Source: Candidatus Harpocratesius repetitus
GTDB taxonomy: Archaea > Asgardarchaeota > Lokiarchaeia > Sigyniarchaeales > Promethearchaeaceae
NCBI GenBank assembly: GCA_021498095.1
Contig: JAIZWK010000001.1
Location: forward strand, 1,200,001 to 1,232,000
Reading direction: 5' to 3'
Length of the DNA: 32,000 nt
Positions 181 to 25,613 of the stretch are shown piece by piece (within the stretch, counting starts at the first letter, position 1; each line of letters opens with the position of its first letter). Both the position numbers and the translations under genes were made by a program. The notes below the pieces were generated by a model that was given only the letters and a program-made list of their open reading frames with translations, did not search any database and was not told the DNA's origin.

Positions 181-510
181 TTTAGTATTCTTTTTTTTTC
201 TAAATTTTATATATTAGAGGTTATAGCAGAATTCAAAGAATTGAAGGAAATCCGAAAATCTTCTCTAAATTTTCCACAATCCCCAAATCTATCCTAATTT
301 TAAATTTGTCGAAAGATAGTTAAAGAAAAAAAATAAGATTAAGTCAATAATTCAAAGAAAAATGATAAAAATATGAAATTATTAATCGAATTTAAGATTG
401 TAAAAATACCGACTCAAATAATAATTGGATGCATGGAAGTATTGTCATGAAAATTGGCTCAAAAGATAGATTTTGATTAAATTAAAAAAAATTACTAAAG
501 CCTCATTAAT
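181..510. repeat. Copy A of a ~330-bp diverged dispersed non-coding repeat (copy B at 19049-19380)
   Basis: Colinear blocks shared with copy B: TTTAGTATT..AAATTTTATATA..GAGGTTATAG(C/T)AGAATTC..AATTGAAGGA(A/T)ATCC(G/A)AAAATCTT, AAAGAAAAATGAT..TGAAATT, AAAAAT(A/G)CCGACT, ATTGGATG..TGGAAGTATT. Confidence 0.85.
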
Positions 511-11704: not shown

Positions 11705-13432
11705 TTAAAATTCTCTAAGTTCAACCAAAATGGGCAGAATTTCTTTTAAGAATGAACCTGATTTTTTATGAAGTAATAGATTATATAATGGACTATTTGG
11801 ATAGACATAAAAATTATCAGGATCTTTAAATTTTTTTAACATTCTTTTTAATTTAAACCAATACATTAGATTTGAAGAAAATATATCGAATCTAAGTGTC
11901 TGCATGAATGTTCTAATTAAATCTGTTGAAATCCAACAAATAGTATGAATATATCCATATTTTGGATAAAGGTTCAACTGTAATTGTTGAGAAAATTGCT
12001 CCATTGTTTTACAATGTTCTGTATTTTGTTTTTTCTTCAAATTATTTTTAGAATATATTTGATGGCTTTTCTGTGATAATTCTTTTATGGAATCTGCTGA
12101 AATAAATGAAACTGATTGAATTTTATTTGTATTTATGGACCAAAGAAGACCAAAATAATTTTCTTGAACAGAAAAATTATTTGAATGATTAAGTATATGA
12201 AAATTATCTCCAAAAATGGCTAAGATTTTTCCTTCAACACCTATATTTTCAAATGCATTCGTAATGACAAACCTTGGAATATTCCAATATGCTAATTTTC
12301 TAATATTTAATGGAATTTTAAATGCATACTGCCAATACCTAAATTGTTCATTCATAATTAGAGGCGATGGATGCATTAACCACTCAAATTCATACGAACG
12401 GTAATTTTTAATAAGACCTTGGAAAATAATATCCAGTCGATATAGACTTACTGGGAATGTGCTTTGAATAAACATTTCAATATTTTTCAATATCGGAGCA
12501 AGATCAAAAATAAAATTTGTTGGTGTATTGTACTTTTTCTTTAAATATTTAAGATATTCCAATTTGGATTTGTTATTTTTCATATGTTTATCTAAAAGTG
12601 AAGGATTTAATGGTAGATATTTTATTAATATTGATGGATTTCGAGAATCAACTAGATACGCAATTACTTTTGTCGAAGATTGAATTGATAATGAAAATTT
12701 TTTTCGAGGAAAACAATTTTTAATGAATGATATTAATGTATCTTCCAATTGAGATTTGGAATCTTCTAATATAAAATCAAATGTTTCATTTATTCCATCA
12801 ATGAAACGAGTAAAATCTGTTTCGGGAAAGCATTCAAAAAATATTTTTTCCTTATTATTGCGATTTCTTGCTTGTATAAAAAGCAAAGAGTATTTTACAA
12901 TAACTTCGATGAAATCTAATTGTTGACTAATTGTATGTGAAAAAATCGAAAAAAGCTCTTCAATAAAGTTATTTGAGTAAATATGAATATTTCCAATATT
13001 TAAATTATATTTTTTCTTGATTATTGGCAAGATTTCATCGAATTGTTCTTTAAGAGTTAATTTTTCTTTAATTTGATTATTAAATAGTGAAATATCCATA
13101 GAATTGATATTTAATAATAAGCCTTCATTTGTACATTCTATTAAATAAGCGCGTGATGGTGAACCTTCTTTATTTAAAATTATTTCAATCGAATTTGCAT
13201 TTGTATTAAGAATATAATAATAAAAAGCGCTCCAAAATTCTTGAAATGCAGAAATATCACAGGTTAGATTCAAAAAGGGAATTTGAAAGAGTTCGTATTG
13301 AAATTGCTTATTTTTTTGATAATACTGGGTTGATTCAAATATTATTTTCATATTATATTGTAATTGAGCTTGAGTTGAAGATTCTGTTTGATAATTCTTC
13401 AAATTTTTTTCATGATTATCATGCTTAAGCAC
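11705..13432 (-). CDS. Hypothetical protein (575 aa), no family recognised
   Basis: Long uninterrupted ORF in AT-rich DNA; its start overlaps the stop of the upstream 693-aa gene by 8 nt. Confidence 0.75.
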   Translation of the reverse strand: MLKHDNHEKNLKNYQTESSTQAQLQYNMKIIFESTQYYQKNKQFQYELFQIPFLNLTCDISAFQEFWSAFYYYILNTNANSIEIILNKEGSPSRAYLIECTNEGLLLNINSMDISLFNNQIKEKLTLKEQFDEILPIIKKKYNLNIGNIHIYSNNFIEELFSIFSHTISQQLDFIEVIVKYSLLFIQARNRNNKEKIFFECFPETDFTRFIDGINETFDFILEDSKSQLEDTLISFIKNCFPRKKFSLSIQSSTKVIAYLVDSRNPSILIKYLPLNPSLLDKHMKNNKSKLEYLKYLKKKYNTPTNFIFDLAPILKNIEMFIQSTFPVSLYRLDIIFQGLIKNYRSYEFEWLMHPSPLIMNEQFRYWQYAFKIPLNIRKLAYWNIPRFVITNAFENIGVEGKILAIFGDNFHILNHSNNFSVQENYFGLLWSINTNKIQSVSFISADSIKELSQKSHQIYSKNNLKKKQNTEHCKTMEQFSQQLQLNLYPKYGYIHTICWISTDLIRTFMQTLRFDIFSSNLMYWFKLKRMLKKFKDPDNFYVYPNSPLYNLLLHKKSGSFLKEILPILVELREF

Positions 13433-18415: not shown

Positions 18416-18546
18416 AGGAACTTTAAAATCGAGGATTATTTAAAGTATTGTGGGAATGCTTTGGGAATTATATTTAGGAAAAAAAGAGAATATGTGAAGA
18501 ATAAATATAAGAAAATATGAGTAGAAGAGATTCCAGATAATATTTT

Positions 18547-18886
18547 TTATGTTTCATTCTTGAGAAAAGAGAACAATCGATTTTGTATTTCAATAGGAAC
18601 GTTTGCTTTTTTTAGTTTAAGCCAATTTTTAATTCCTGCTAAGGTGCTACGAATATGTTAAATTCCCTTCATCAGATAACTTTGGAAAAAAATCTTCCAA
18701 AGTAATTTTTTCTGTTGCAACAATTTCCAAAATTCGTTCCAATATATAAAAATCTTGCTTGGAATTTTGGACATATACTGATTTTGGATAATGATTTCTA
18801 TGATTTTATTTATTCTGGCTCTTTCTTTGTAGAATATTATAAATATCAAATGCTTTTTGTTTTTTGTCGGCGATGCTAACTTCCAA
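18547..18886 (-). pseudogene. Possible decayed gene remnant (one in-frame stop and one frameshift)
   Basis: Protein-like fragments in succession: LEVSIADKKQKAFDIYNILQRKSQNK*, NHRNHYPKSVYVQNSKQDFYILERILEIVATEKITLEDFFPKLSDEGNL, then shifted HIRSTLAGIKNWLKLKKANVPIEIQNRLFSFLKNET*. No homolog recognised. Confidence 0.3.
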
Positions 18887-18977
18887 TTATTTAGATTACT
18901 ATTTCACTTAATGAAATTTGGTAATGGTGAAGTGAAACGCCATACCAAAGTGGCCCTGCAAAAAGACAAATCACTTT

Positions 18978-19033
18978 AAAGCATTTCATGAAATTCATTA
19001 AGAATTCTTAGAATGCTTTTTTTTTCTTTTTTT
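18978..19033 (+). terminator. Branched stem-loop followed by a long oligo-T run
   Basis: AAAGCATT...AATGCTTT arms enclose the palindromes TTTCATGAAA and TAAGAATTCTTA, followed by T runs. Confidence 0.4.
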
Positions 19034-19048
19034 CTTATGAAATCTTCT

Positions 19049-19380
19049 TTTAGTATTTTTTTTTTAGTAAATTTTATATAAAAGGAGGTTATAGTAGAAT
19101 TCGAAAAATTGAAGGATATCCAAAAATCTTGTATGGATTATCCCCAAAAACCAAACTTCTCTCATTTATGCATTTATCGAAACATCTTTTAGGAAAAAAA
19201 ATATCCAAATGAGTCGGAAATTTAAAGAAAAATGATGGAAATGTGAAATTCTTGACCGATTTTAAAGGTTCAAAAATGCCGACTTAAACATTTATTGGAT
19301 GTTTGGAAGTATTCTTGAAAATATTTGCCAAAAAATAGAATTTAATTAAGATAAAAACAATTGCTGGAAACTCAATATTT
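19049..19380. repeat. Copy B of the ~330-bp diverged dispersed non-coding repeat (copy A at 181-510)
   Basis: Same orientation and colinear blocks as copy A; contains the GAGTCGG...CCGACTT complementary pair. Confidence 0.85.
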
Positions 19381-19491
19381 TTTCCTAAAAAAAATATATT
19401 TCTCCACTCCACTATTTTCTAAGCAATATCTTAATATCACAAATTTAAAAAATATATGATTATGGCAGCTCTCGAGGTGAGTTGGTTTAAA

Positions 19492-19587
19492 TGTATCACA
19501 CTTATAATACCCTTAAATACAGTGTCAAAAGTGTTGTCTTCATGTGTTTTTTTCTGTATTACACTTGTATCAAACTTGTGATACAAT
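19492..19587. promoter_or_regulatory. Operator-like repeat array upstream of the SIR2-like gene
   Basis: TGTATCACACTTATAATAC (19492-19510) matches TGTATCAAACTTGTGATAC (19566-19584) at 16/19. There are 11-bp tandem units TGTATTACACT/TGTATCAAACT/TGTGATACAAT and a palindrome TTGTATCA-N6-TGATACAA. Confidence 0.65.
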
Positions 19588-19618
19588 TCCATAAATCATT
19601 TAATTAACAAAAAATGAT

Positions 19619-20908
19619 ATGAAAATGAAATTACTCAATGTCAAAAAAAAATTTCAATGTCCTATTTGTGGAGCGAGTTCAATAAATCAAGAATATTTTT
19701 CATCTGATAAACATAAGGAAACTAAAAAGCACAAAGATGCCTTGAGATCAATTAAACTACCTCAAATCCCGAATAGCTTTTTATCACAAATATCTAAAAC
19801 TCAATCTTTACTTTCAAATGTATTTAAAAAAGTTCTTTTAGATTGTAGGAAAATTCCTTTTGAAGAGATCTTTTCTAATTTAATTATTTCTCTAAAACCA
19901 ATATTTGAAATATTAAAAAGATTATATGAGTATCCAATTAAATCAAATAAGCAAAATATTGAGTTACTTAGAAATTATCATTCAAATGAAAATTTGGCGT
20001 TAATTTTAGGAGCGGGTGTTTCAATTGAGGCAGGGATACCATCATGGAGAGGATTATTAGGTCATCTTTTGAAAAAGGCACTTATATCTTCAAAATTAAT
20101 AAAGGATGGAAAAGAAGAGATGTATGCAAATCTAATTAATCAATTTCTTTCTTTCAGTAATTTAATCGATGCAAGGCTGATTGAAGAAATGATGGGGAAG
20201 GAAGAAATGATCAATGAAATAAAAATATATCTTTATGATTCATTAGATGAAGATTGGAAAAATAAATCAAATATCTTATCAAATATAGTAGATTTAGTTT
20301 CACAACGTACCAATATTCAAATAATCAGTTATAATTATGATGATTTACTAGAACAGATTTTTGATGAGAATGAAATAGCTTATGAAATTAAATATTCTGA
20401 GAATAATTCATGGAAAAAGGGCAATGGTGTAAAAATTTTCCATGTTCATGGATTTCTGCCCCAATTTAGAGAATACGAATCAAATAAAATAGTATTCTCA
20501 GAAGAATCATATAATAAATTATTTGATAACCCACATAATTGGACAAACAGTGACCAAATTCACTTATTGAGCAATTCTCACACTCTAATTATTGGACATT
20601 CATTTTTAGATCCGAATATCCGAAGATTATGTGAATTAATTGCCAAAAATAAAACTCAAGATCAAAATATGAACCATTTCATAATTTTAAAACATCCTCT
20701 AGCCGAATTATTGGATTTTGAGAATAATTCAAAAGATAAAAAAGAAAAATGGGTATTTATGGAAAATGAATCTTATCAAGATATATATAATTTTCTTAAT
20801 GAGTTGGCTGAAATATTTAAGCAAATGTTTTCTAAATTTGGTATAAATATTTTATGGATTTACAAATTTAGTGATATTTCTCGAACTTTATTAAAAATAA
20901 TGGAATAA
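19619..20908 (+). CDS. SIR2-like (SIR2_2-type) NADase-domain protein with an N-terminal C2H2 U1C/matrin-type zinc finger; putative defence effector
   Basis: LALILGAGVSIEAGIPSW, IISYNYDDLLE, IFHVHGFL, IVFSEESY and LIIGHSFLDPNIRRL motifs; N-terminal C-x2-C-x14-H-x5-H. Confidence 0.88.
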   Translation: MKMKLLNVKKKFQCPICGASSINQEYFSSDKHKETKKHKDALRSIKLPQIPNSFLSQISKTQSLLSNVFKKVLLDCRKIPFEEIFSNLIISLKPIFEILKRLYEYPIKSNKQNIELLRNYHSNENLALILGAGVSIEAGIPSWRGLLGHLLKKALISSKLIKDGKEEMYANLINQFLSFSNLIDARLIEEMMGKEEMINEIKIYLYDSLDEDWKNKSNILSNIVDLVSQRTNIQIISYNYDDLLEQIFDENEIAYEIKYSENNSWKKGNGVKIFHVHGFLPQFREYESNKIVFSEESYNKLFDNPHNWTNSDQIHLLSNSHTLIIGHSFLDPNIRRLCELIAKNKTQDQNMNHFIILKHPLAELLDFENNSKDKKEKWVFMENESYQDIYNFLNELAEIFKQMFSKFGINILWIYKFSDISRTLLKIME

Positions 20909-21580
20909 TTCCTTGCTCATATCTCCAATTATATCTCGATTTTTTTACTTTTTTAATTAATGGAAATAAAACTTCCTGTAGATCTTCGTGTGTGAACGAT
21001 CCAAAACTAGATATCCCTATTAGATATTATTTATTAAATAATGTATTGTATTTCAGAAAATCAATTATTTTTTTATTTATTTTAATTATTTCTCTTAAAC
21101 AAGTTGCGAATGAAATTGCAATAAATAAAAACGATACATCAAATTCAAGTGAAAGTGCAGGATGGTTTTGAATTTGCTTATATTGAACTTGATATTTTTC
21201 ATTTTGATGTGCATATTCTCCAAAGAGATACATATTCAAAATATCCGATGAGTAAATTCTTTGGTTTTAAAAGGTGAGATGGGGATTCTTGCAAAATAAG
21301 CTTTTTATTCTAAATAAATAATTATTTATGTCCTTTCGTATATTGTGAAAAAGCGATCGAAAAGGAACAGGGATGAATTTATTTTCATAAAGTTTCATTA
21401 CTCGTAAATACTAATGGGTTCTTTGTCATATATGTATCCAAAATTAGTCCCAAAGCAATTTTAAGATCAATTACAAAATTACTTGTTTAACATATTATTT
21501 ATTTGGATGTAGAGGATTTTCAATACTCGAATTATTTATACATTCCATAATTTGTTTCAGAACTTGAGAAAATTAAATTA

Positions 21581-22549
21581 TTAATGGATATATTCATCTA
21601 ATATAATTGTTTTCAGTTTTTTGGTTATACTCTTTTTAATTTCATCAATATTATTTTTTAGAGTACTAACTTTTCGAGGTACTATTTTGTAATTATTTGA
21701 ATTTATTTTCATTAAAATCGATCTATTTTTTCTGTATTTCGTTTCTGATACATAATTTAGAAATTTTCTTATAATTTTTATTATAGCTTTTTTATCTTCA
21801 TGCCCAAAATCAAATCTATCTACTACTTCGGAGAAAATAGCATCATAAAAATCTTCATCCCTAAATTGCCTGTCTATTGTTGAAATTTTCTCAAATAGAT
21901 AACTTCCAAAAAATTTTACAAGTAATTTTCCTTGCCTCCTAGAAATTGGTGAGTTATATGCTCGATTATCATTTTTATAAGTTAAATCACCTAATGTAAA
22001 TGGAATTTTAATTATGTCAGAATAATTTGATATATATGAAATAAGATCTGGATTAGAAGATGGAAAATTTATTCTCATATTTGAATCAACACCAAAATTA
22101 TAATTATTTCGATTTAAAATTAAATATGAATCGCTTTGATCATAAGAAATAAATTTGAGAAAGTCTGAAACAAAAATAGAATCAATAAAAAGATATATTA
22201 GAAAAAGCTTTCCAGATTCAGCAGGAAATATAAGAGAGTTCCAATGACTTGGCTCTAAAGAAGATAAGACACAATATTGTTTTTTTATCCTCGATTGTTC
22301 ATCTTTCTTCTTTTCTTTTTCTTCTAATGATAATGAAGATCGTATTAGGGAAATGTTTTTTTTTATTATTTTAATTTCAAATATGTAGTAATTTATATTT
22401 TTAGGATCCCCACATTTCACTATATAATCGATTTTCGTTGAGCCTAAACTATTTTTAACCTTCAATTCTGCAATTGAGAGAAAGTCTCCTTTTTCTTCGA
22501 AATAGTTATATAATAAGTTTATTAATCTGGACGTTAAAGATATATTCAT
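21581..22549 (-). CDS. PD-(D/E)XK restriction-endonuclease-like protein (322 aa); the start is probably ATG at 22549, not 22648
   Basis: N-terminal E..KIDYIV..IFEIK..KQY fits the PD-(D/E)XK motif; ATG 22549 lies 4 nt after the upstream stop, avoiding a 95-nt overlap. Confidence 0.7.
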   Translation of the reverse strand: MNISLTSRLINLLYNYFEEKGDFLSIAELKVKNSLGSTKIDYIVKCGDPKNINYYIFEIKIIKKNISLIRSSLSLEEKEKKKDEQSRIKKQYCVLSSLEPSHWNSLIFPAESGKLFLIYLFIDSIFVSDFLKFISYDQSDSYLILNRNNYNFGVDSNMRINFPSSNPDLISYISNYSDIIKIPFTLGDLTYKNDNRAYNSPISRRQGKLLVKFFGSYLFEKISTIDRQFRDEDFYDAIFSEVVDRFDFGHEDKKAIIKIIRKFLNYVSETKYRKNRSILMKINSNNYKIVPRKVSTLKNNIDEIKKSITKKLKTIILDEYIH

Positions 22550-22553
22550 AATT

Positions 22554-23792
22554 TCACATCTGTAATGTTGTTCCGTCAATTTCAATTGATATATTTGGTG
22601 AAAAATATTTTTGAAGATTAGTAAATAACCTGAATACATTATTCCCACAACAATTCTTATGTAAATTTAAGTATATTTTATCATCAAATACTTGAGCGTA
22701 GAAATGATCTCCATTATGTAAATCTGCGACTCTATAATAATCATAATTGATTTCGGAGTAAAGGTTAGTAAAGTAGAGCTTAAATAGACTCGAAATATTG
22801 TTTAGTCTTTTTACAAAATTCTTACGCTTTATTTTATCATCGAAAATAATTTGGATAAGTTTTCCCTTATTTTCTTTTGGAACATATCTATATGATTCTA
22901 TTTCATTCAATTTTTCTCTATAAGTATCTAATATATCATTTACAAACTCTATATGTCTAGAAAAATCTGTTCCGTTGTTAACTGTAAATCCACCTTTATA
23001 TGTGAATTCCTCCTTTAATATTTGAGAATTATCTTCATCTTTAAAATAGCACATTAGAGATTTATAATTGATTGGAAGATCTGCTTTATATAAGGATTTT
23101 AAAGTATTCTCGAATGAATGAGGTGTTCCTGCCCATAATCTTAAAGAATATTTTAGATTGTTAATAATAGTGGGATCTTGAAATACATCAAATCCTTCTC
23201 CCATTGAATTTCTAAGTTTTTCTTCTTCTCCTTCATCTTCTTCATTTTCCTCATAATTATCATCGTCGTCTTCATCATCAAAGATATTCTCATCGATGCT
23301 ATCATCGATAAATGATTGTTCAAAATTTAAACTAAATCCCCCTGGAAAGATATCATCCTCTTCAATTTTTGATTTCATCATAGTATTAGTTAAATAAATA
23401 CTATCTTGTTTATAGAAATCTTGAAAAATGTTTTGAATATATTTTTTTATTTTTGTTTGAGGTTCTTTATTATATATTATCCAAAATCTTGGGATTTCTG
23501 CAACTTCTTGCTTTATATAAAAAAAATACTGCTTTTCTTCTGTTTTTAATTCGAGGGTTTTAAAATATTTTTCTCTTGATTCATGTAAAATAAGTTTTGC
23601 TGGATTCTTCTTTCTTTTATTATTCCAACTTTTAATTAAAGAATCCAAAGTTTGGTTAGATTCAATTATATTAGTTTTAATACTGGTACTTATTCTTTTT
23701 TTCCTTTTTTTTTTATTTATGTCAATATTTTGTATATATTGCTGAAAATAATTGAACCAGTCTTTTTCATAATCAAATATTTTTGTATCCAT
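22554..23792 (-). CDS. Hypothetical protein (412 aa) with a central poly-acidic loop; partner of the downstream nuclease
   Basis: Long ORF; acidic run DDEDDDDNYEENEEDEGEEE; folded-looking segments RFWIIY, ADLHNG and CCGNNVFRLFTNLQ. Confidence 0.8.
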   Translation of the reverse strand: MDTKIFDYEKDWFNYFQQYIQNIDINKKKRKKRISTSIKTNIIESNQTLDSLIKSWNNKRKKNPAKLILHESREKYFKTLELKTEEKQYFFYIKQEVAEIPRFWIIYNKEPQTKIKKYIQNIFQDFYKQDSIYLTNTMMKSKIEEDDIFPGGFSLNFEQSFIDDSIDENIFDDEDDDDNYEENEEDEGEEEKLRNSMGEGFDVFQDPTIINNLKYSLRLWAGTPHSFENTLKSLYKADLPINYKSLMCYFKDEDNSQILKEEFTYKGGFTVNNGTDFSRHIEFVNDILDTYREKLNEIESYRYVPKENKGKLIQIIFDDKIKRKNFVKRLNNISSLFKLYFTNLYSEINYDYYRVADLHNGDHFYAQVFDDKIYLNLHKNCCGNNVFRLFTNLQKYFSPNISIEIDGTTLQM

Positions 23793-23820
23793 ATTTTTAT
23801 CTTACTTGAATGTTAATTTA

Positions 23821-23828
23821 AATATAAA
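23821..23828 (-). promoter_or_regulatory. TATA box for the 412-aa/nuclease operon
   Basis: TTTATATT on the minus strand, about 29 nt upstream of ATG 23792. Confidence 0.5.
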
Positions 23829-23884
23829 CTGATTGAAATAAATTTAATTTTTAATTATTTATTCCTAATTATCATTCGATCTTA

Positions 23885-24289
23885 TTAATTTTTAGAATTG
23901 GAATAAAAAATAAATAACCTCATAAGTTCACTTTTCACACTGGAACTCATATCTGAAGCCAGTTCTTCCCGCTCACAAGTTTTCACAAAATATGGTTTTT
24001 GGGTATAGCGAAACTTATGTAAAATGGAAAAGAAGGTTTGCTCGATATTGAACGTATAATATTGCCATGTTGCATATTTCTCTTGTAAACGTTTGAAAAT
24101 AAGAATAAATTGAATATATGCCTCGTGGATATTTTGAGGGGTGATATGGATAACAGAAATGGAAGGATCACGGAGAGTGATTACCTTCGTGATGATTTTA
24201 GTTAAATTACGTTCAAATTCATTTATTTCGATTGAAAATAAATAAGTAATCATCATCAATTCAATCCATTTGGGAAAAGTTCGAATCAA
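23885..24289 (-). CDS. Hypothetical protein (134 aa, TTG start), possibly the 3' part of a decayed longer gene
   Basis: Open frame; the same frame continues upstream through three TAA codons to an ATG at 24454 that overlaps the stop of the zinc-ribbon gene. Confidence 0.4.
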   Translation of the reverse strand: MIRTFPKWIELMMITYLFSIEINEFERNLTKIITKVITLRDPSISVIHITPQNIHEAYIQFILIFKRLQEKYATWQYYTFNIEQTFFSILHKFRYTQKPYFVKTCEREELASDMSSSVKSELMRLFIFYSNSKN

Positions 24290-24450
24290 TAAAGTCTCAA
24301 AATAATTCTGAATTTAGGAAATCTTTGGATTTATTAAAGAAAAGATAAAGATGGCATAGTAAATTGCTAATGAAGAAATGAAAGAACGAAATAAATTTTC
24401 ACTATCAAGAATAAATTATAATAATTTAAGAGATAATTATTGAAATAAAT

Positions 24451-24834
24451 TCATTTTATTTTTTTATTAATTTTGTTAATTTCTTTCTTTAATTCTTTTT
24501 TTATCTTTTTTCCCTCATCAATTGCTTTTCGAGCACCTTTCCCAAAAGATTTTGTTCCAATTCTAATTCCTTCACTAATTTTTTTTGTTCCTTTTTTAAA
24601 ACGCTCGCTAATTTTTATTGCATTTTCCTTGAATGTTAGACCAAATAGTTCGAAGTTTAATGTTGATGAATCTATATTCGGGTTGTTGATTTTTGCTCTT
24701 TCTGTTTCGGGTAATTGAAATCTTTTCCCGCAATTCTTGCAAATAATCCCTTTTCCTTTTTTTAATGAACTGATTAAAGATTTTGTCAAAGGTGCTCCAC
24801 AATTTGAACAATATAAATCATTTATATCCTTCAT
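24451..24834 (-). CDS. Zinc-ribbon protein with a Lys-rich C-terminal amphipathic helix
   Basis: YCSNCGAPL..IICKNCG (two CxxC pairs); ATG at 24834 preferred. Confidence 0.75.
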   Translation of the reverse strand: MKDINDLYCSNCGAPLTKSLISSLKKGKGIICKNCGKRFQLPETERAKINNPNIDSSTLNFELFGLTFKENAIKISERFKKGTKKISEGIRIGTKSFGKGARKAIDEGKKIKKELKKEINKINKKIK

Positions 24835-25613
24835 ACAGAACACTATGATTTTGTTTTATAAAAACTTTTTCTGATTAATATCCATTCATTATAAAATTTT
24901 ATTCTAATAAAGACGAAATGATAAATATTTGGCGCCATCATGAAAACTTTGAACTAAATAAGAAATTAAACCAAAAATTATTGAAATTTTGTTTTCATTC
25001 AAATAAATTAAGTGATGTTAATTTGCAGGTTCCAATTAGAGGAAATGATTAATATTTTGCATTGCACTTGAAATACAATTATGATCTATTCTCATGTGTT
25101 CCACTTGCAATACGAGAAAAGTGGTTCTTGAGGGAAATCACCCTTTTTGAACGAATATGTGCGTGTATACTATTAAAAGATGAATAATTGAAGTTTTTAA
25201 AAATATAAAAGAGATTTTTATAGATGTGAATTGACATGGTTTATGTGAATTTATGTTTATTAATAGATTCTGAACTTAAAAGGAAATGAAATCATATCAT
25301 GAGATCAATTAGTCTAAAGTCGCTCGCGCAGCTATTGGAAAGAAATTAGCAGAGATGCGTTTTTTGGTTGAATTCAGTAAAGAAAGTCAAATAACATTAG
25401 AAGATGCTAAAAATAAGGTCAAAAGTAAATCAAAATCAATGAGTATTATGATTCTAAATAAATTGGGGATCTCACATATCTACAAACTTATCCGCAACAA
25501 AAAAATTTTTGATCACTCTTGTTCAATAAAAAATTGTTATTATTGATAAAATAAAATTTTGAAGAAAAAAAGAAAAGAGAAGAAGAAATAATAATAAATA
25601 AAAATAATATAAT

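Follow-up and report, generated by a model that had tools for sequence, protein, structure and literature searches.

A predicted N-terminal C2H2 zinc finger joined to an immune-class SIR2 domain in the Asgard archaeon Candidatus Harpocratesius repetitus

SIR2 proteins have been divided into sirtuins and immune 'sirims' (bioRxiv 10.1101/2024.09.18.613514). The gene described here, hereafter the SIR2 gene, lies on the forward strand at positions 19619 to 20908 of the window, that is, the whole 32,000-nucleotide stretch of DNA that was analysed (genome bases 1,200,001-1,232,000 of Candidatus Harpocratesius repetitus). Its product consists of a predicted zinc finger, a helical linker and a SIR2 domain. 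Among described systems, the best structural match to its SIR2 core is ThsA (8bto, 7uxt, 6lhx), with which it shares the catalytic Asn and His motifs. While ThsA carries a ligand-binding SLOG/Macro domain at its C-terminus, the SIR2 gene product has neither, and its additional module, the zinc finger, is N-terminal. Thoeris relies moreover on a ThsB/TIR gene partner, whereas none occurs among the open reading frames (ORFs) between window positions 13425 and 27609 around the gene. KomC and DSR2 have the SIR2 fold in common with the gene product; however, KomC acts with KomA/KomB and a nucleotide signal, neither of which is present in this setting, and DSR2 carries a long C-terminal sensor binding the phage tail tube protein, which is absent here. 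In DSR1/DSR2 the sensor measures about 700 aa, whereas the SIR2 gene product has only 429 aa in all. The partners of SIR2-HerA, SIR2-APAZ/pAgo and Lamassu (LmuA-SIR2 with LmuB), namely HerA, pAgo and an SMC-like protein, were not found near the gene either. An earlier note, made from the DNA letters alone, had described the enzyme as lacking an adjacent partner, and this was borne out by Pfam and PADLOC, which matched no ThsB/TIR, HerA, pAgo or SMC protein among the same ORFs.

The closest relatives in sequence are bacterial proteins in which the SIR2 domain follows a TIR domain (about 430-470 aa) or a putative PD-(D/E)xK domain (about 500 aa), with 30-39% identity over residues ~80-429. These bacterial stand-alone SIR2s share with the gene product the layout of N-terminal module, helical linker and SIR2 domain, have no conserved partner and in at least one case lie in a mobile/defence island; their N-terminal module differs, however, and lacks the Cys/His motif. 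They are annotated merely as 'SIR2 family protein', and we know of no experimental test of this clade as a defence system. The finger itself finds its nearest described counterparts in eukaryotes, where ZMAT2/Snu23, ZNF346/JAZ, ZFa, SF3a60/Prp9, SF3A2 and U1-C have the C-x2-C-x(10-14)-H-x5-H spacing in common with it. Unlike these, the Asgard fingers are single, stand at the extreme N-terminus and have non-spliceosomal partners.

The SIR2 core and its clade

The gene and the elements of its enzymatic part are as follows.
19619..20908, forward strand: SIR2 gene, 429 aa, encoding zinc finger, helical linker and SIR2 domain (ORF and translation)
19772..19984, forward strand: helical linker, residues 52-122, two long helices (AlphaFold2, pLDDT rising from 60 to 85)
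19985..20905, forward strand: immune-class SIR2 domain (SIR2_2, ThsA-like), residues 123-429 (Pfam, PADLOC, AlphaFold2, Foldseek)
20009..20023, forward strand: GAGVS NAD-binding loop, residues 131-135 (conservation in 65 homologs)
20333..20335, forward strand: Asn239 in YNYDD, equivalent of the catalytic Asn (invariant in 65 homologs; aligns with KomC TTNYD)
20441..20452, forward strand: HVHG, residues 275-278 (H275 and G278 invariant, H277 above 90%; H277 falls on KomC His146)

The core belongs to the immune class of SIR2 domains, is ThsA-like and has kept its active site intact. The SIR2_2 model (PF13289), which the earlier note had proposed as a check, matches with an E-value of 1.1e-19 and 71.4 bits against a cut-off of 24.5, while the classical SIR2 and CobB models, whose cut-offs exceed 220, give only partial matches of 12-15 bits (E 0.01-0.08). 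In PADLOC, LmuA and ThsA match best in their SIR2 forms (4e-17 and 1e-16), and the profile hidden Markov models (HMMs) of ThsA, which are matched by all 65 homologs, align to the gene product over their SIR2 part only. The three motifs read earlier as intact are indeed so, with GAGVS at residues 131-135, YNYDD at 238-242 and HVHG at 275-278. All 17 positions that are invariant among the 65 homologs are kept, including G131, G133, W143, N239, D241, E245, H275 and G278, and A132 and S135 are conserved at more than 90% across the same set. KomC is the best sequence match in the PDB, where H277 is aligned to the residue altered in the entry KomC(H146N).

Structural modelling places the protein in the same company. 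The AlphaFold2 model, built on a 65-row alignment, has a pLDDT above 90 over residues 110-429, and in Foldseek the top 50 places go exclusively to defence NADases, among them BcThsA (8e-14), KomC (1e-11) and DSR2 (4e-11). The modelled SIR2 domain reaches the last residue, without an additional C-terminal domain. The sirtuin Cys4 module is also absent, since the protein holds only four cysteines, two of them in the N-terminal finger. The helical linker claimed by the earlier note is recovered as helices 52-75 and 81-122; from about residue 66-90 onward it is common to the SIR2 homologs, whose alignments start at query residues 66-110. A homodimer prediction with zinc scored 0.37 against a mark of 0.42 and was not used as evidence either way, and a PHROGs search gave no match for the SIR2 protein. 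From these sequence features, the gene product is very probably an NAD+-consuming immune-class SIR2, with NAD+ hydrolysis as its expected activity.

A phmmer search of the whole protein against 1.84 billion representative sequences returned 2266 matches, of which the best other than the protein itself had 39% identity. The clade around the core is almost entirely bacterial and stand-alone: the best 80 loci, taken from one-genome-per-species contigs, are bacterial save one Methanosarcina, and within two genes on either side of SIR2 no neighbour family recurs in 69 homolog loci. What varies is the N-terminal slot, which in 254 homologs is filled by a shared domain of about 170 aa (149 proteins), by TIR (38), by other domains such as DUF4062, Mrr_N and Roc-COR (33) or by none (34). 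The clade therefore has a one-gene architecture in which the occupant of the N-terminal slot can be exchanged. That the whole clade stands alone also supports the one-component layout envisaged in the earlier note, and the SIR2 gene is itself probably a one-gene system. Its nearest homolog, a TIR-SIR2 protein, is neighboured by an integrase, HicAB, PemK and another TIR gene.

The unannotated ~170-aa domain carries a D...E-x-K motif and was modelled with a pLDDT of 90.6. Its sequence profile matched nothing in the PDB or Pfam, and its fold matches, with MspJI at the top followed by Can2, BstEII and EcoT38I, are modest (best E 1.8e-3, TM 0.55). The fold matches and the motif together thus give a modest indication of a PD-(D/E)xK restriction-type nuclease fold.

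The N-terminal finger and its Asgard family

The N-terminal module and the loci of the family to which it belongs are as follows.
19652..19741, forward strand: single C2H2 finger, residues 12-41 (C14, C17, H32, H38), from the motif, the family alignment and a leave-one-out HMM
L114 and L117-L150: loci of the finger family (28 of 400 Asgard genomes), alignment A5

The reading frame and the spacing reported in the earlier note were both confirmed: C14, C17, H32 and H38 form a C-x2-C-x14-H-x5-H pattern over residues 14-38. The frame begins five codons upstream of M1, and apart from M1 and M3 its one in-frame start ahead of the SIR2 core is a TTG at codon 42. The public gene call, on a single 4,361,485-bp contig, uses M3 and yields 427 aa; C14 sits 11-13 residues past M3/M1. 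Over the first 110 codons this frame has no stop at all, where the two alternative frames have 8 and 15, and the chance of such a stop-free stretch at the local base composition is about 3e-5. Shuffling the protein 300,000 times reproduced the exact Cys/His pattern in 3 cases (1e-5) and a C2H2 pattern of any broad kind in 0.27%. Within a crude proteome of the genome (1.27 M residues), no gene other than the SIR2 gene has this exact pattern.

A search with residues 1-60 in 400 genomes of the phylum gave three weak matches, each a C-x2-C-x11-14-H-x5-H pattern right at the protein start, and these seeded a four-sequence profile. This profile recovers a family in 28 of the 400 genomes, with E-values down to 4e-13 outside the seed. 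In 30 of its proteins no more than about 12 residues separate the finger from the first Met, and the two Cys, the two His and the H-x5-H spacing are invariant. The family has a single finger with C-x2-C-x10-14-H-x5-H spacing and the consensus C-x-I-C-G-K-x-L-K-N-P-x-S-x-x-H-I-N-S-K-x-H-Q-x-A-L. When the profile was run against 5.8 billion proteins, 58 clusters were significant and every named one was Asgard, including Promethearchaeum syntrophicum DSAG12_00609; no member in that search bore a Pfam annotation on the finger. In the literature we found no description of this Asgard finger family. With the SIR2 protein left out, the family profile still scored it at 25.4 bits (E 8.8e-6 over 17,986 genome frames), the next match standing at 0.089.

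Against the PDB, the family profile covers, at E-values that are all modest, the whole finger of ZMAT2 (4.5e-4), ZNF346/JAZ (0.01), ZFa (0.02), ZNF622 (0.1), Prp9 (0.15) and SF3A2 (0.47), while classical multi-finger proteins match at the Cys knuckle only. The ZMAT2 alignment spans H-I-N-G-K-K-H-Q, to which H-I-N-S-K-x-H-Q corresponds in the family. The fingers of ZMAT2, ZNF346, ZFa, Prp9 and SF3A2 all contact RNA or double-stranded RNA (dsRNA). Within the SIR2 protein itself, the Pfam model SF3a60_Prp9_C matches below threshold (21 bits against a cut-off of 30.7), and this protein is the best match of that model in the whole genome. Whole-genome scans with zf-U1, zf-met and zf-C2H2_jaz matched other genes and not the SIR2 gene. 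In a pairwise test, the finger was similar (E 0.001) to the JAZ/zf-met finger of a 530-aa protein from the same genome. Features from the ESM Atlas over residues 1-60 scored at most 0.90 and are taken as leads only.

By these comparisons the finger is, as judged from sequence, a real domain of an Asgard-restricted and apparently undescribed family that most resembles the U1/matrin/JAZ fingers. It is quite likely to be folded and to bind zinc, and common descent with the eukaryotic U1/matrin/JAZ fingers is plausible. The earlier assignment to the U1-C/matrin type is thus supported, as a resemblance, by the family-level evidence (alignment, leave-one-out profile and PDB profile), while the Pfam models proposed to recognise it failed to do so. 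The 530-aa protein is a coiled-coil protein with three C2H2 fingers, encoded on the reverse strand at genome positions 3,507,834-3,509,427 (L011:1072-2664). One of its fingers passes the Pfam cut-offs for both zf-met and zf-C2H2_jaz, which means that curated JAZ-type fingers occur in this Lokiarchaeon.

The partners of the finger, named from PDB sequence matches and precomputed Pfam columns, fall into at least 15 unrelated groups of C-terminal parts. Those with mapped coordinates include the following.
L129:1471-1839 and L144:1465-1845, forward strand: finger, Lys-rich linker and histone fold, 105-126 aa (also P0271 and P0321)
L149:249-5090 and L146:359-4705, reverse strand: LRR/Roco-like giants, 1448-1613 aa
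L147:258-2291 and L148:247-2199, reverse strand: two Kv-type voltage-gated channel repeats, 650-677 aa

The histone partner is an archaeal histone fold (HPhA E 1.7e-6; PF00808/PF00125), and LRR/Roco-like finger proteins range overall from 1448 to 1741 aa. Other partners are aIF2-gamma (497 aa, P0272), UPF0182 and other membrane proteins, a beta-helix protein, and small proteins of 150-210 aa with a coiled coil and a winged-helix-like end, the winged helix being a lead only. A low-complexity linker often follows the finger, and Lys-rich linkers are found in other Asgard members. SIR2 occurs as a partner in this gene only. Other zinc fingers have been described: Asgard TniQ proteins carry classical tandem C2H2 fingers (bioRxiv 10.1101/2025.07.27.667033), and 'ZZ histones' bear a different finger (PMC11390915), from which the finger-tailed histone found here is distinct.

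Origin and genomic setting of the fusion

The joining of finger and SIR2 appears to be new, as the earlier note had supposed. The Cys/His motif is absent from the N-terminal slot of 255 + 69 SIR2 relatives. In the profile search of 5.8 billion proteins, which served as the search for the same architecture elsewhere, this gene was the finger's sole SIR2 partner. No phmmer match aligned with residues 1-47, and a search with residues 1-110 among proteins of 235-751 aa returned the protein itself only. In the literature no description of a zinc finger-SIR2 fusion was found. The earlier note had named the lack of the Cys/His pattern in homologs as grounds for abandoning its reading. The pattern is indeed lacking in the SIR2 homologs, yet the reading is not refuted by this, because the N-terminal slot is modular throughout the clade. 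In this gene, a native Asgard module fills the slot of a bacterial-type effector. The earlier placement of the DNA in an Asgard archaeon was also right, as the source genome shares its GTDB family with Candidatus Lokiarchaeum ossiferum. Among 40 relatives, one encodes a SIR2 protein of 30% identity, whose N-terminus is not the same. Next to the SIR2 homolog of G019 lies an ORF for a Cys-rich protein of 245 aa (L003:673-1410, forward strand), with an HNH-like C-terminal motif recognised by eye.

The SIR2 gene lies in a region that differs between relatives and contains the following elements.
18416..25613, no strand: low-GC accessory island with the SIR2 gene, from an aminotransferase gene to a proteasome beta gene (GC profile and comparison)
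19493-19510 and 19567-19584, no strand: operator-like 18-mer palindromes, consensus GTATYACACTTGTRATAC (fuzzy whole-genome scan)
19593..19727, forward strand: promoter-proximal block and first 36 codons (blastn, and alignment with a decayed 79%-identical copy at genome 3,866,897-3,867,030)
Genome 3,873,258-3,873,626: 122-aa ORF behind a second palindrome cassette

GC content is 24-27% at 19-25 kb, whereas the flanking DNA has about 31%. From the aminotransferase gene to the proteasome beta gene the interval spans 7.2 kb here. The same two genes bound it in two closed genomes of the family with differing contents, namely 4.9 kb with a P-type ATPase in one relative and 3.6 kb with CheR, a citrate transporter and DUF3795 in Ca. 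Lokiarchaeum ossiferum. The interval is a variable hotspot, and the SIR2 gene is accessory. The assemblies of two genomes of the same genus break at this interval. Rfam found no RNA family on the island, and the window contains no tRNA gene.

Upstream of the SIR2 gene, at window positions 19085-19370, lies a repeat of about 285 bp that is dispersed over the genome in more than 30 copies of 73-83% identity. It resembles a miniature mobile element, and another copy occurs at window positions 181-496. The palindrome GTATYACACTTGTRATAC occurs at one other genome locus only (3,873,758-3,873,930), ahead of the Cys-rich 122-aa ORF (P0259); its confinement to two loci suggests that one regulator serves both. 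The promoter-proximal block with the first 36 codons has a second copy at genome positions 3,866,897-3,867,047 (L002 / L019:2898-3047), which is 79% identical, frameshifted and interrupted by stops. It retains both Cys and the first His but has lost the second His, and it lies 7 kb from the second palindrome cassette, inverted relative to it. As this rearranged, decayed copy exists, the block must have moved within the genome. Both the copy and the second palindrome cassette fall in a second defence-like island (genome 3,864,000-3,877,000; L019), which also holds two Schlafen/AlbA_2 genes, a methylase of the Eco57I/MmeI type and a 541-aa ORF matching a PHROG. That ORF, downstream of the decayed finger copy, was considered as a SIR2 relative and proved unrelated.

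Downstream of the SIR2 gene, two convergent genes for proteins of 412 aa and 355 aa lie on the reverse strand at window positions 21581-23792, neither with a Pfam or PADLOC match. The pair was considered as a SIR2 partner and set aside, being unlike the neighbours of a SIR2 homolog. In genome G019 it recurs (370 + 321 aa, with 4 nt between the genes) on a contig that has no SIR2 gene, and it is therefore treated as an independent module. A paralog of the 412-aa protein, which itself matches phrog_22469 (E 2e-15), lies at genome positions 187,248-188,317.

Possible roles of the fused protein

We favour, tentatively and at a little less than an even chance, a stand-alone abortive-infection NADase in which the finger, on binding a ligand, would cause the SIR2 domains to assemble and NAD+ to be lost. 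The SIR2 enzyme would be kept idle until the finger bound its ligand, for which nucleic acid or nucleoprotein is the foremost candidate. Binding would then cluster or re-pack the SIR2 domains, by analogy with ThsA, KomC and DSR2, and with its NAD+ consumed the infected cell would stop growing. Nucleic acid is kept as the leading guess for the ligand by the RNA binding of the closest solved fingers, by the Lys-rich linkers and by partners such as the histone and the winged helix, although we would still lean slightly against it. A specifically viral ligand appears unlikely. The form closest to the earlier proposal, in which a finger related to the U1/matrin/JAZ type would directly sense viral RNA, double-stranded or structured, and thereby set off SIR2 assembly and NAD+ depletion, is improbable.

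Several observations weigh against this stand-alone NADase controlled by its finger. The finger itself is a difficulty: zf-U1, zf-met and zf-C2H2_jaz, which the earlier note expected to recognise it, do not match the SIR2 protein (E <= 10), AlphaFold2 gives residues 1-35 no confident fold (pLDDT below 50), and a lone C2H2 finger is usually a weak nucleic-acid binder. Its history is another. No ortholog of the SIR2 gene occurs in the 40 relatives, and selection on the fusion cannot be demonstrated because it is a singleton of one genome. The comparison of the gene's 5' end with its decayed copy, with differences of 8/8/8 over the three codon positions, is uninformative on constraint. In a tree of 254 SIR2 cores, this one sits on a long, unresolved branch, so that no donor lineage can be named. 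Finally, the presence of the same finger on a histone, aIF2-gamma, LRR/Roco-like giants and Kv-type channels weakens the claim of a viral nucleic-acid sensor. Partners so unlike one another point to a general-purpose N-terminal module rather than an immune sensor, and with beta-helix and membrane proteins also among the carriers an adaptor fits better.

Such an adaptor would dock its carriers onto a shared host protein or structure, so that the SIR2 enzyme would be regulated or localised in this way while infection is sensed elsewhere. Besides the range of at least 15 unrelated architectures, the invariable position about 12 residues from the initiator Met, often before a low-complexity linker, is the pattern of a portable tag. 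The closest solved fingers, however, contact RNA or dsRNA (partly a matter of general knowledge), several partners are associated with DNA (the histone fold and the winged-helix-like small proteins), and no candidate host partner is known; we consider the adaptor somewhat unlikely, though the nearest competitor of those considered here. The singleton state of the fusion and the long branch of its core would both be expected of a recent accident, in which an acquired SIR2 gene took on a promoter and the 5' end of a finger gene and is now a passenger or decaying. The rearranged, decayed second copy of the promoter and first 36 codons, and the dispersed repeat just upstream, agree with such an event. 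Yet the frame of 429 codons is intact although about 9% stops are expected per random codon, all invariant SIR2 residues and the four zinc ligands are retained, and the linker helices are modelled as packed and continuous with the core, all of which makes a fusion of little function a poor prospect. The least probable explanation, and one we regard as very improbable, is a housekeeping sirtuin acting as an NAD-dependent deacylase or ADP-ribosyltransferase, which the finger would bring to chromatin or to RNA-protein complexes. In other Asgard archaea the finger is joined to histone folds, and classical Sir2 enzymes act on chromatin; the weak and partial matches to classical SIR2 and CobB, the missing Cys4 module, the exclusively defence-related nearest structures and HMMs, and the placement of the gene in an accessory island absent from relatives all speak for an enzyme of another kind.

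The question of whether the finger is a sensor is directly testable at the bench, because the protein is small and its catalytic and ligand residues are clear. Were the RNA-sensing form true, the archaea nearest to eukaryotes would possess an immune effector that senses RNA as a single protein, by means of a eukaryote-like module for RNA binding. The gene also shows that stand-alone immune SIR2s can take up lineage-specific modules in their N-terminal slot, a bacterial-type effector having here been refitted by an Asgard archaeon with a domain of its own. The finger family is a by-product of greater interest than the gene, and if it is related to the spliceosomal and dsRNA-binding fingers of eukaryotes, it would bear on the origin of that eukaryotic module.

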